Origin: Patescibacteria group bacterium
Lineage (GTDB): Bacteria; Patescibacteriota; Minisyncoccia; JACQLN01
DNA: 64,000 bases
Assembly (NCBI GenBank): GCA_038065095.1
Contig: JBBTRR010000006.1
Coordinates: 84,713-148,712, forward strand
Direction of reading: 5' to 3'
The position numbers were made by a program, and so were the translations under genes. Shown here piece by piece: positions 4,328 through 61,750 of the stretch (position 1 is the first letter of the stretch; every line of letters starts with the position of its first letter). Below the pieces are notes generated by a model. It had not been told where the DNA came from. It did not search any database and worked only from the letters and a program-made list of their open reading frames with translations.

Positions 4328-4410
4328 GTTAGCTTCACTAGCTTTCAGCTTCGTTAGCTGGTTAGGTATAATCTCCTAAAAAGCTAAGGAAGCTAAAGAA
4401 GCTAAAAGCA
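4328..4410. repeat. PAL repeat (agctaacgaagct family), copy 1
   Basis: Long imperfect hairpin: tagctttcagcttcgttagct ... agctaaggaagctaaagaagcta; arms are reverse complements. Confidence 0.7.
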
Positions 4411-4412
4411 TA

Positions 4413-5807
4413 ATGCGTATATACAACACCCTTACCAGTAAAAAAGATGATTTAAAAATCCCGCCATCTGGCGAGATCAATTTATTTGTATGTGGCCCAA
4501 CTGTTTATGATTATAGTCATATCGGCCACGCCCGCACTTATATATTTTTTGATGCTTTAGTTAAGTTTATGCGTAAATATTTGAGTATAAAAATAAATTA
4601 CTTACAGAACATCACCAATATAGACGATAAAATAATAAATCGCTCCGCCGAAGAAAATAAAAATCCGCAAGAGCTGGCGGATTTTTTTGAAAAAGAATAT
4701 ATAACGGATATGAGCTCTCTTGGGGTAAGTGCTGTTAACACTTATGCTCCAGCCACAAAATATATTCCCGAAATAATTTCGCAAGTAGAGCGTTTAATTA
4801 AAAAAGGTTTTGCCTATGTGTCTGGCCCCTCGACTACGCTCGGGACAAGCAGTGTTTATTTTAATGTAAGAAAATTTCCAGAATATGGAAAGCTATCACA
4901 CCAAAAACTTGCGGATTTAAAAGAAGGAGTAAGAATTGATGTTGAGGTTGGTAAAAAATTCTTTGCCGACTTTGTTTTATGGAAAGTTGCTAAACCGAAT
5001 GAACCAACTTGGGATTCGCCTTGGGGCAAAGGCCGCCCTGGTTGGCACATAGAAGATACAGCTATAACCGAAAAACATTTCGGCTTGCGTTACAATATTC
5101 ATGGTGGCGGATTAGATTTAATTTTTCCTCACCACGAAGCCGAAATTGCCCAAATGGAAGCGATATCGGGCTTAAGCCCTTTAGCCGAAGTTTGGATTCA
5201 CACTGGAATGCTTTTGGTTGATGGCGAAAAAATGTCTAAAAGTTTGGGTAATTTTATAACCATACGAGAATTTATTAAAGAAAATTCACCACAAATCTTG
5301 CGTTATATGGTTTTATCTCAACACTACCGCACAGGTTTGGATTTTTCCAAAAAGACAGTTCAAATGGCAAGTTCTTCTATAAATAGAATTGCAGATTTTA
5401 AAATTCGCTTAAAAAGCATTAACGAGCAGTCTTCTAGTTTTCCTTGGGAAGATTTTGAAAAAACATTTTGGCACGAACTGGCCGACGACTTTAACACACC
5501 AAAAGCCCTAGCTTCTTTATTTGAACTTATTACAGAAACCAACAAACTAATTGATTCACACAACTTATCCCACAGCGATGCACAGAAAATCGTTGACTTT
5601 ATAGACAGGGTAAACGATATTTTAAACATACTACCCAAAGAAGAATCCATACCTGCAGAAATTACCGCCTTAGTAGCTGATCGTGAAAAAGCTCGCGCCA
5701 GTAAAGATTTTGAACTATCGGATAAACTTCGCAATCAAATAAAAGAATTAAACTGGGAAGTGGAAGATACTCCCCGTGGACCCAAAATATCAAAAATTAA
5801 AAACTAA
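4413..5807 (+). CDS. cysS: Cysteine--tRNA ligase
   Basis: 464 aa; HIGH motif (SHIGHARTY), KMSKS motif, class I aaRS CysRS layout. Confidence 0.9.
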   Translation: MRIYNTLTSKKDDLKIPPSGEINLFVCGPTVYDYSHIGHARTYIFFDALVKFMRKYLSIKINYLQNITNIDDKIINRSAEENKNPQELADFFEKEYITDMSSLGVSAVNTYAPATKYIPEIISQVERLIKKGFAYVSGPSTTLGTSSVYFNVRKFPEYGKLSHQKLADLKEGVRIDVEVGKKFFADFVLWKVAKPNEPTWDSPWGKGRPGWHIEDTAITEKHFGLRYNIHGGGLDLIFPHHEAEIAQMEAISGLSPLAEVWIHTGMLLVDGEKMSKSLGNFITIREFIKENSPQILRYMVLSQHYRTGLDFSKKTVQMASSSINRIADFKIRLKSINEQSSSFPWEDFEKTFWHELADDFNTPKALASLFELITETNKLIDSHNLSHSDAQKIVDFIDRVNDILNILPKEESIPAEITALVADREKARASKDFELSDKLRNQIKELNWEVEDTPRGPKISKIKN

Positions 5808-5875
5808 ATATTAAAATTTAAATTTTAAACTTTCAATTGTGATTTTGAATTTTACACTTTTATTTTTAAACTTGA

Positions 5876-59330: not shown

Positions 59331-60627
59331 CTACCTTAGGACAATTATAGTTATTGCCGTCGTTCATCGGTGCTTCGGGACTTAGCATATCAGGCGAACC
59401 CAACACACCTCATCCGTTAACATCCCGACACTGGACAGGCGTCAGCCCCTATACATCCTCTTACGAGTTAGCAGGGACCTGTGTTTTAGATAAACAGTTG
59501 CCAGGGGGTCGTTTGCTGCGGCCTCGCTTTCGCGAGGCAGGCCTTTTTGCGAACTTACGGCCGTTCTTTTGCCGAGTTCCTTAACGAAAATTCACCCGTT
59601 CGCCTTCGTCTACTCGACGTGCCTACCTGTTTCGGTTTTAGTACGGTCGTTTGCGACTTAATCTTAGAAGCTTTTCTAGAAAGATGGCTTTGTAAAATTG
59701 ACTTCCCCGAAGGAAAATCTTTGTTAGTATCTGCAGTTTGCTATTAAAAGCAGGGCTCCGGTTTTTCCAGGAACCAACCTTTGATACTAAAGCGTTAAAT
59801 TCAATAATACGCTCTACATACTCATCTTCGTCACTTCATCGAAATCGCAAACGGCAAATGAATATTAACATTTCATCCATCCCCGAGATCCGTACATTGG
59901 ATCTACAAGTTAGGACCGGCTAACCCTTGGTTGATTTACATTGCCAAGGAAACCTTAGGCTTTCGGCGATCCGATTTCTCATCGGATTTGCGATTACTAG
60001 GGCCAACATTCTCTCTTCCTAACGCTCCAGCTGTCCTCACGGATCAACCTTCACAGCGGTTAGGAATGCTCTTCTACCACGCCCTCCAACCGAAGTTGGA
60101 GGGCATTCGCACGTTCGGTATTAGACTTAGCCCCGTTAAATCTTCGGCGCATTCTCCCGTAGTAGAGTGGTGAGTTGTTACACACTCTTTAAAGGATGGC
60201 TACCTCTAAGCCAACCTTCCACCTGTTTAAGGAAGAACACAGCCTTTTCCACTTAGTCTAAATTTAGGGACCTTACATGGCGATCAGGATTCTTCTCCTC
60301 TCGACTATGGAGCTTAGCCCCCACAGTCTAACTGCCTTGATACTCACCGTGGTATTCGGAGTTTGTTTGGAACAGATAACTTGCGTCACCCAATCCCATT
60401 CAGTGCTCTACCCCCACGGCTAATTACAAAGCGCTAGTCCTAAAACTATTTCGAAGAGAACCAGCTATTACCAGGCTCGATAAGCTTTTCACTTCTACCC
60501 ACAGTTCATCCCCCAGTGTTGCGCGACTGGTGAGTACGGACCTCCACTCTCCTTTCGGAGAGCTTCATCCTGACCATGGGTAGCTCGCTCTGGCTTCGGG
60601 TCTTATGCACACCACCTTCAAACTAGC

Positions 60628-60702
60628 TTCTTAGCTGATTAGCTTCAAAAGCTTGTTAGGAAAATTCCTAAAAAGCTAAAAGCTAACGAAGCTAAAAAGC
60701 TG
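60628..60702. repeat. PAL repeat, copy 7, forming an intervening sequence in 23S helix 25
   Basis: Inserted right after GGGAAACCGAGTCTTAATAGGGCG where helix 25 lies; sequence ...tagcttcttagctgattagcttcaaaagcttgttaggaaaattcctaaaaagctaaaagctaacgaagctaaaaagct. Confidence 0.65.
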
Positions 60703-61689
60703 ATTTGTACGCCCTATTAAGACTCGGTTTCCCTATGCTTGCGTCTAACAAAAGACTTAAGCAAGCGATGTACATAAAGTCGTTGGCTCATTCTCCAAGA
60801 GGCACACCATCACCCACCACTGCACAGCAGTGGAAGCTCCAATATACAATAAACAAATTCCAAACATATTTTGTTTGTTATTTGTAATTTGTGTTTTGAA
60901 ATTTCCAGTGCTGTGCACTGGTAAGGGCTATGATTCTTTGTAGGTAATTGATTTCAGGTACTATTTCACCGCCCTTCCGGGCTACTTTTAACCTTTCCCT
61001 CACGGTACTAGTTCACTATCGATCTCAAAAGGTATTTAGCTTTGGGAGTATAGTCCTCCCGGTTTCACCCGAAGTTGTCGTTCCTCGGGCTACTCAGGAA
61101 TGGATAAGAACTAAGAGTTAATTTTCGCTTACAGGACTATCACCTTTTATAGTTGCCCTTTCCAGGAGCATTCTGCTAACTAAAACTTGTGTCCTTGCTT
61201 ACGCATAATCCATCCTACAACCCCAACCGTTCAATATAGAAATACTGCCCGATTGGTTTGAGCTGCTCCCTGTTCGCTCGCCGCTACTAAGGGAATAAAT
61301 TAAACAGTCATTGCTTTAGCCTACTAACCCCCTAGACTACGTGTGCCTAGGAAGTTAGTTTGCTAAAGATGAGTTGTTAATCTGACATATCTTTTCCTCT
61401 GCTTACTGAAATGTTTTACTTCGGCAGGTTCCCTTCTTGGAGTTACCAACCTCCAAGACAATCTCGGTTCACGAGACTAGATTTCTCCATTCGGAAATCC
61501 CCGGATCAAAACTTGCTACACAGCTCCCCGAGGCTTATCGCAGTTACGCCACGTCCTTCATCGGCCTTTTGAGTCAAGGCATCCACCAATTACCCTTAAG
61601 TTCACGAAAGCACTAAGACCACAAAATGGCCCGTGCTTTCCCTCTTTCCTACATAATCGCACTTTTCAAGTGATTAAAAATTCTATTCC

Positions 61690-61750
61690 GAGCTTCTAGA
61701 AATTTTGCTTTTTTGATTTTTAGGAATTTCCTAACAAGCTAAAAGCTAAC
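61690..61750. repeat. PAL repeat, copy 8 (partial) in 23S leader
   Basis: tttttaggaatttcctaacaagctaaaagctaac. Confidence 0.5.

Follow-up and report, generated by a model that had tools for sequence, protein, structure and literature searches.

Why should the genes for RNA polymerase and ribosomal proteins, whose operons rank with the most compact and best conserved of all bacterial operons, be separated from one another by copies of a single palindromic repeat, and why should a further copy lie inside the 23S rRNA gene? This question was raised by a 64-kb stretch of DNA (positions 84,713 to 148,712 of contig JBBTRR010000006.1, hereafter the window) from an ultra-small member of the Patescibacteria, or candidate phyla radiation (CPR). 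The contig comes from a Hainich groundwater metagenome (0.1-µm filter), and the window has a GC content of 37.6%. A loose Shine-Dalgarno (SD) motif is found at 8 of the 48 gene starts in the window, and the 23S rRNA gene, which is ~760 nt longer than usual, shares 88% identity with the one in a Minisyncoccia metagenome-assembled genome (MAG; locus L059). The weak SD use, the Minisyncoccia-like 23S rRNA, and its enlargement are traits of the Patescibacteria/CPR. An initial annotation of the window, made from its letters, had proposed that the repeat, which we call the AGCT element, provides RNA processing hairpins that punctuate both mRNAs and rRNA. Here we ask how the element is built and placed, and which explanation accounts best for it. 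Loci from other genomes are referred to by L numbers.

The window contains seven full copies and one decayed copy of the AGCT element (Table 1). The eight-copy family of the initial annotation is therefore real, with the reservation that its eighth member is a remnant. A 20-mer core, AGCTTTCAGCTTCGTTAGCT, was matched nine times when up to three mismatches were allowed, as opposed to 0.00 matches expected from shuffled sequences, and a two-arm pattern, TTAGCTN{15,45}AGCTAANGAAGCTAA, gave 12 matches (0 expected) that covered seven elements. We also derived a covariance model from the seven full copies; a search of the window with filters off recovered exactly these seven with E values of 1e-10 to 1e-17, on both strands because the copies are palindromes. 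The model also recovered the decayed copy, and nothing further scored below E 0.1 in the window. Chance or low complexity as the source of the repeat is ruled out by the shuffles and by the covariance model search. Rfam searches of the window at gathering score returned rRNA and tRNA matches only, and the AGCT element thus matches no Rfam family at this score.

The elements are 75–95 nt in size, and all eight copies fold into long imperfect stems, just as the initial annotation had described. Free energies of the seven full copies range from -27.7 to -38.8 kcal/mol (z -3.3 to -7.4), that of a 116-nt stretch with the decayed copy is -34.1 kcal/mol (z -4.3), and for each copy none of 200 shuffles folded as well. 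The stems are ~30 bp long with a GC content of 33–39%. Their arms consist of tandem 7–9-nt units around the self-complementary tetramer AGCT (AGCTTyNTT in the 5' arm and AANrAAGCT in the 3' arm), the N position being mostly a 1x1 mismatch within the stem. The apex is close to TTAGGAAnTTCCTAA. A central dyad had also been noted previously; three copies carry its sequence, TTAGGAATTTCCTAA, without any change, and others do so nearly. In the decayed copy, 80–150 nt upstream of the 5' end of the 23S rRNA gene, the 5' arm and apex are intact and the 3' arm is degenerate. Outside the elements the AGCT tetramer is just ~1.4-fold enriched, and for this reason the idea of a DNA uptake sequence was dropped.

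Table 1. Positions of AGCT elements, rRNA inserts, and further palindromes. Positions are those of the window unless another locus is named; dG is in kcal/mol; a dot stands where no strand is assigned.
Feature	Position	Strand	Remarks
AGCT element, corA/cysS gap	4328..4412	.	Stop 4327, start 4413; dG -36.4, z -6.5; 77.6 bits
AGCT element, dnaB/recR gap	7251..7325	.	Core matches, fold, Pfam, covariance model
AGCT element, convergent gap between 618-aa ORF and rplL	37613..37693	.	dG -36.2, z -7.4; exact TTAGGAATTTCCTAA apex
AGCT element, rplJ/rplL gap (minus-strand genes)	38107..38186	.	86 bits
AGCT element, right behind rpoC stop, upstream of rplJ leader region	38899..38985	.	Fold, covariance model
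AGCT element, rpoB/rpoC gap	42634..42710	.	Fold, covariance model, near-identical copy in L061
AGCT element, loop of 23S helix 31	60622..60705	-	Sense dG -38.8, z -7.4
Decayed AGCT copy, leader upstream of 23S 5' end	61685..61770	-	30.8 bits, E about 1e-4
23S rRNA gene hosting the helix 31 AGCT insert	57921..61609	-	3689 nt vs 2925-position model
23S helix 25 insert, separate hairpin, 101 nt	60826..60926	-	ACAAAT/ATTTGT units; dG -48.7, z -7.8
CCAAAT-unit hairpins of L137	5140-5250, 7190-7290, 7882-8010		16S and two 23S sites
GC-rich palindrome within hrcA (1115-1945, -)	1338-1410		CCCCGTTAGAA...TTCTAACGGGG family
GC-rich palindrome	62047-62117		CCCCGTTAGAA...TTCTAACGGGG family
GC-rich palindrome in L126	about 4720-4790		CCCCGTTAGAA...TTCTAACGGGG family

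All seven full copies in the window are non-coding. Pfam searches confirmed the gaps in which the initial annotation had placed the intergenic copies, namely CorA/CysS, DnaB/RecR, RpoB/RpoC, RpoC/L10, L10/L7/L12, and the gap where L7/L12 converges with a 618-aa open reading frame (ORF). When this convergent gap is included, a copy lies in 4 of 4 gaps of the minus-strand rpoB-rpoC-rplJ-rplL cluster and, outside the cluster, in 2 of ~35 other gaps. The elements fill their gaps closely: the upstream gene has its stop codon at or within the first unit of the element, and 3–12 nt separate the stem from the start codon that follows. The copy in the convergent gap overlaps the TAG stop codon of the 618-aa ORF. 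The gene order rpoB-rpoC-rplJ-rplL (38988-46055 and 37692-38710) is the reverse of the usual rplJL-rpoBC arrangement, and in the related CPR loci L138, L139, L141, and L142 rplJ-rplL is found upstream of the 23S rRNA gene instead.

Next, we located the copy inside the 23S rRNA gene. That a single family occupies both mRNA gaps and 23S rRNA was borne out, whereas the placement at helix 25 had to be revised. By cmscan the copy is a 92-nt insertion at positions ~689–691 of the Rfam large subunit (LSU) model, in the loop of the third small hairpin within a 13-bp helix that follows helix 25, and an alignment to E. coli rrlH set the insertion point after E. coli nt ~652. These two alignments rule out helix 25. 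In the standard E. coli numbering, helix 27 (589-601/656-668) encloses helices 28, 29, and 31 (637-651), which assigns the copy to helix 31. L059 has an AGCT element at the identical helix 31 site. Helix 25 (E. coli ~540) holds a different hairpin (Table 1), which is outside the AGCT family in sequence, yet a similar kind of element: it has ACAAATTACAAATAA and TTTGTTTATTGT in common with an intergenic hairpin (48202-48291) that sits in a divergent gap. A third hairpin insert in the same gene follows nt ~224–232. Among six further CPR 23S rRNA genes, two have helix 31 hairpin inserts of 50–60 nt and two have unit-array hairpins in helix 25. In L137, another CPR genome, a hairpin family with CCAAAT units occurs in the 16S rRNA gene, near the 5' end of the 23S rRNA gene, and in 23S helix 25. 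Given the helix 31 copy in L059, the intergenic relative of the helix 25 insert, and the L137 family, the short insertions seen in rRNA genes of the CPR would seem to belong to families of dispersed hairpins. Short non-intron insertions at known sites of CPR 23S rRNA have been interpreted as probable RNase III intervening sequences (IVSs) in a study that catalogued rRNA insertions of ≥100 bp and made no connection to intergenic repeats (Tsurumaki et al., 2024; PMC11270868).

The rRNA region has other features of its own. A 709-nt insert at E. coli 23S position 1931 (58624-59332, minus strand) carries a LAGLIDADG_1 ORF (58717-59232). A second LAGLIDADG_1 ORF (57403-57849, minus strand) lies just past the 3' end of the 23S rRNA gene as called by Rfam, and the distance from 23S to 5S exceeds 1.1 kb; because of these two observations, the true 3' end and a second intron may be mis-delimited. 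Two hairpins on one strand (56919-56970 and 61751-61783), located between 23S and 5S and upstream of 23S, are identical at 34 of 35 positions (CCCrGTAACGTACATTCGTATGCGTTACTGGGCTA); they may be stems that serve in pre-rRNA processing, or else a further small repeat family. The 23S_rRNA_IVP family (PF05635) is represented by two genes, at 34402-34836 and 21159-21809 (minus strand), both of which lie outside the rRNA genes.

To see how far the family reaches beyond the window, we scanned GTDB species genomes with the two-arm pattern. At least 118 loci were matched, at least 45–50 of which hold true AGCT-array palindromes. Among the matches listed, nearly all AGCT-array loci with an informative label are from Patescibacteria of many classes, and the unit and apex sequences are conserved across distant CPR classes. 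Some matches are labeled as Gammaproteobacteria, Bdellovibrionales, or Planctomycetia MAGs. We treat these labels as doubtful, since at least one such locus, L070, carries an element that nearly matches the one in the Moranbacteria locus L073 and has r-protein clusters in common with it. We scored the position of 43 elements outside the window: 26 lie in co-directional gaps, seven in convergent ones, and divergent gaps contain none, while four overlap crude ORF calls by 22–69 nt and six have no called neighbor on one side. The elements begin 0 ± 5 nt past a stop codon and end 0–10 nt ahead of the next start codon.

The most extensive case is the S10/spc ribosomal protein (r-protein) operon of a Saccharibacteria MAG (L109, genes assigned by Pfam). 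Here AGCT hairpins occupy 13 of 14 intercistronic gaps, and one AGCT subfamily is present in eight copies that share a uniform orientation. When the protein families encoded beside elements were compared over 45 loci, r-protein operon genes were the only ones to recur (eight loci from eight different assemblies), and no transposase family did so. The r-protein operons that bear AGCT elements also hold unit-array hairpins made of TACGAAT, TTAGGAAT, TGCAAAA, or CAACAACT units, and some of these other families are common to distant CPR genomes. In L003, one-armed tandem arrays (6155-6239, 6728-6767, and 7690-7729), for example (AGCTAACGA)x10, lie beside r-protein genes. They have no obvious complementary arm, which implies that units can grow as plain tandem repeats.

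We then considered how stably the elements are kept. The dnaB/recR junction of L037 (DnaB 59% identical at the amino acid level) also holds an AGCT element, and an element stands right behind rpoC both in L089 (an orthologous element; RpoC 92% identical) and in L091 (RpoC 54% identical). Closer to the window, L126 is a strain with 97.3% identity. Over three AGCT gaps totaling 254 nt, the two strains differ by 0 substitutions, as opposed to nine expected from flanking four-fold degenerate sites, which are 3.5% divergent (P about 1e-4). The two elements on either side of rplL are both 100% identical in L126. The rplL gene itself (37692-38096) is 9.8% different (13.5% at four-fold sites) between strains that are otherwise ~1–2% apart; a divergent rplL between identical elements on both sides indicates a recombination mosaic.

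Elements are also exchanged. In the rpoC/rplJ gap of L126, an unrelated GC-rich palindrome has been swapped in for the AGCT element, boundary to boundary, and in L089, L127, and L128 the rplJ/rplL gap holds other hairpin families, which differ among the three loci. The rpoB/rpoC copy of the window is identical at 72 of 75 positions (96%) to a copy in L061, a Yanofskybacteria MAG, where it lies between split transketolase genes. No target-site duplication was seen at the boundaries defined by the comparison with L061 or by the swap in L126, and Pfam scans of ~40 ORFs of the window revealed neither a transposase nor a REP-associated tyrosine transposase (RAYT). In eight other rRNA loci of the CPR, ~140 kb in all, the covariance model detected no AGCT element, and the rplJ/rplL gaps there are only 18–64 nt long and free of hairpins. 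The comparative rplJ series was limited in size, a metagenome scan with the L10 protein having given 10 loci. The family looks mobile or exchangeable rather than like a fixed processing signal.

Collectively, our results are best explained if the AGCT elements are a dispersed, non-coding palindromic repeat family of Patescibacteria that resembles repetitive extragenic palindromic (REP) sequences, miniature inverted-repeat transposable elements (MITEs), and Rickettsia palindromic elements (RPEs) in habit and is built differently. Copies would spread or be exchanged between sites and between genomes, and would persist only in slots that are transcribed and untranslated, that is, immediately behind stop codons where the gap is co-directional or convergent, and at the tips of variable rRNA helices. 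Their location inside operons and inside the 23S rRNA gene implies that they are transcribed and fold as RNA. Most likely, each stem would then serve as an intercistronic stem-loop that is cut by a double-strand-specific RNase (RNase III) and/or acts as a barrier to 3' exonucleases, so that operon transcripts would be cut or stabilized gene by gene, with a possible effect on expression. In 23S rRNA, the helix 31 copy would behave like an IVS and be excised, or else be kept as an expansion segment; helix 31 is the site of the eukaryotic expansion segment ES9L. We put the probability of this reading, a mobile palindrome co-transcribed as an RNase III or exonuclease-barrier site in mRNA and rRNA, at roughly one half.

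The punctuation idea of the initial annotation thus survives in part. The order of stop codon, hairpin, and start codon, the avoidance of divergent gaps, and the near-complete series in L109 fit it, but a strand test based on wobble pairs does not lend it support, and several other observations weigh against a role at the RNA level. In the strand test, the sense strand folded better in 14 elements and the antisense strand in 18 (p=0.48), with 57 and 76 G.U pairs, respectively; in L109 the antisense fold was better in 12 of 13 gaps. Since the sense strand does not exceed the antisense strand, the test gives no sign that wobble pairs in the RNA are under selection. The orientation of the longer arm relative to transcription is likewise unbiased overall (p=0.19), and the Pfam scans of ~40 ORFs in the window did not reveal a gene for RNase III. 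The relatives that have short rplJ/rplL gaps and no hairpin indicate that any role is not essential. The identity of the elements between the window and L126 could stem from recombination mosaicism, the flanking four-fold divergence being itself a mosaic of 0 to 13.5%. Lastly, the enrichment of r-protein operons was drawn from a pattern-biased sample, among the matches listed. Covariation among the eight paralogous L109 copies, with compensatory changes in 2 of 32 pairs, involves too little variation to decide either way.

The most serious alternative, although we regard it as unlikely, is that the elements are purely selfish or neutral palindromic DNA that spreads by transposition or recombination and is without any role in RNA processing, and that their distribution merely marks where an 80-nt hairpin is tolerated. 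Their patchiness would follow readily, with many copies in some genomes and none in the eight rRNA loci mentioned above, as would the near-identical copy in a foreign context in L061, the swap of whole cassettes between the close strains, the dispensability of the element in relatives with short gaps, and the missing wobble signature on the sense strand. The RPE-like, in-frame insertion of a sister GC-rich palindrome family within hrcA is a further parallel. On the other hand, neutral DNA should not be free of substitutions where nine are expected, nor be kept at orthologous junctions at 54–59% protein identity, nor conserve its unit and apex sequences across distant CPR classes. The concentration in r-protein and RNA polymerase operons, the lack of target-site duplications, and the lack of a recurring transposase also speak against a purely selfish element.

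An improbable alternative is a function at the DNA level, in which the regularly spaced AGCT cores, or an extruded cruciform, would be bound by a protein, for instance gyrase or one of the nucleoid, at the 3' ends of units with heavy transcription. REP elements of E. coli and the bacterial interspersed mosaic elements (BIMEs) that they form have been reported to bind proteins of this type. Both strands of the AGCT elements fold equally well, as expected of a palindrome in duplex DNA, conservation is seen in the AGCT cores, the spacers often being mismatched, and the elements are sited where highly expressed operons have their 3' ends, whereas divergent gaps hold none. However, a unit spacing of 7–9 bp does not fit the helical repeat, and the 23S copy, together with the hairpin families in rRNA loops, is easier to explain at the RNA level. 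The replacement of AGCT elements by unrelated hairpin families at equal sites implies that the sequence is not required, and we identified no candidate binding protein.

Even less probable, in our judgment, are terminators or attenuators, factor-independent or factor-assisted, that would set the expression ratio of neighboring genes. The hairpins are strong and lie right behind stop codons, also in convergent gaps, and E. coli offers a precedent in the attenuator of its rplL-rpoB spacer. Yet the hairpins in co-directional gaps are not followed by a T-run (a U-tract in the RNA) on the sense strand, whereas several of the ~35 AGCT-free gaps in the window hold ordinary terminators with a GC-rich stem and a T-run. 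The missing U-tract, the low GC content of the stems, and the canonical terminators elsewhere in the genome rule out that the elements are standard intrinsic terminators, and read-through within operons is expected. Stopping transcription after nearly every r-protein gene in L109, or inside the 23S rRNA gene, would in any case be harmful.

We consider it very improbable that the 23S copy and the intercistronic copies act by rRNA-mRNA mimicry. According to this idea, a ribosome-associated or assembly protein would recognize the AGCU-unit hairpin on 23S helix 31 as well as the same hairpins between cistrons of the r-protein and RNA polymerase operons. Binding of the free protein to these mRNAs would give Nomura-type feedback that couples production of the translation and transcription machinery to rRNA supply, with the mobile cassette as a shared operator.

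Least probable of all is a translational device, in which the stem would bring stop and start codons together, or be opened by the terminating ribosome, to couple neighboring cistrons where SD sites are scarce: a stop codon at the 5' base of the stem, a start codon 3–20 nt from its 3' base, and the rarity of SD motifs in the window fit this idea, but it is unworkable for the copies in convergent gaps and in rRNA, relatives reach tight spacing without hairpins, and there is no overall orientation bias.

The window contains further palindromes and repeats besides the AGCT family. Of the GC-rich palindromes (Table 1), one contributes 25 aa in frame to HrcA in the manner of an RPE, one is intergenic near tRNA-Met, and one stands in place of the AGCT element behind rpoC in L126. 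TCTAAT/ATTAGA units make up a third family of unit-array hairpins, which was found at 9829-9915, 12766-12924, and 17391-17504, in and around the mraZ-mraW-PBP-mur cluster; its copy at 12789-12905 folds with -32.4 kcal/mol on the plus strand and -13.4 kcal/mol on the sense (minus) strand. Two perfect 34-bp palindromes (49431-49464 and 50074-50107), both with GAGCTTACGATCGTAAGCTC, flank a 190-aa ORF (49510-50082) that encodes a PaaX/Cas2-like domain. A 2416-aa ORF (26462-33712) contains a 917-nt tandem duplication (27744-28660 and 28620-29536, 99.7% identical), and the length of this region differs among co-occurring strains (L119–L121).

The CPR/Patescibacteria make up a large part of bacterial diversity, and the organization of their gene expression is almost uncharted. 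The interruption of operons gene by gene by hairpins, combined with scarce SD use, suggests either that operon expression follows another logic here or that a genomic parasite has been unusually successful. The tie between dispersed intergenic hairpins and the short insertions in CPR rRNA genes would give the latter a concrete origin, and predicts that one nuclease acts on the hairpins of both kinds. Low-complexity palindromes of this sort are also of practical concern when MAGs are assembled, when genes are called, and when the CPR are surveyed by means of rRNA.

We found no published description of the AGCT family in the literature on CPR repeats, hairpins, and terminators, on MITEs, IVSs, and RNase III, or on intercistronic stem-loops, nor by searching for its motif strings. 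Judging from its sequence features, it may represent a new repeat of the REP/MITE/IVS kind that is set apart by its unit-array build, its phylum-wide reach, and its preference for operons of the translation apparatus. The AGCT elements resemble the REP/BIME sequences of Enterobacteria and Pseudomonas, imperfect palindromes that are dispersed outside genes and sit at gene 3' ends in co-directional or convergent gaps; the AGCT elements are likewise extragenic and multi-copy (eight copies in 64 kb) and lie at gene 3' ends. REP/BIME sequences are co-transcribed and, in E. coli, are known to stabilize upstream mRNA and to bind proteins. They are, however, 20–40 nt long with a GTAG head, whereas AGCT elements are 75–95 nt in size, have tandem AGCT-unit arms and no GTAG head, span phylum-level lineages, and occur inside rRNA, and no RAYT was seen among the ORFs scanned in the window. 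MITEs differ in that they leave target-site duplications, which are missing at the AGCT boundaries in the L061 and L126 comparisons.

The Correia elements of Neisseria (CREE/NEMIS) are likewise palindromic repeats of ~100 nt that often lie beside genes, and their hairpins in operon transcripts are cut by RNase III. Their 26-bp terminal inverted repeats, TA duplication, and IHF site have no counterpart in the AGCT elements, which show no sequence similarity to them. RPEs are also a palindromic repeat family that lands in RNA genes as well, in a reduced genome. They typically lie in frame in protein genes, in contrast to the non-coding AGCT copies of the window, and it is the GC-rich palindrome family, in frame in hrcA, that is RPE-like. 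The 23S copy is comparable to the IVSs of Salmonella, Yersinia, Campylobacter, Leptospira, and Rhizobiales in being an insert of ~90 nt that takes the place of the tip of a variable helix and forms a long stem suited to RNase III. Classical IVSs occupy helices 9, 25, and 45, whereas the AGCT copy lies in helix 31 and is part of a genome-wide intergenic repeat family. Finally, the RNase III sites among the early genes of phage T7 are hairpins between successive cistrons of one transcript, and once they are cut, individual mRNAs result that are protected by halves of the stems. Each T7 site is unique in sequence and its cleavage is demonstrated, whereas the AGCT elements form a repeat family in which cleavage is presumed; the T7 sites are nonetheless the closest functional analogy for AGCT elements that would punctuate operon transcripts gene by gene.

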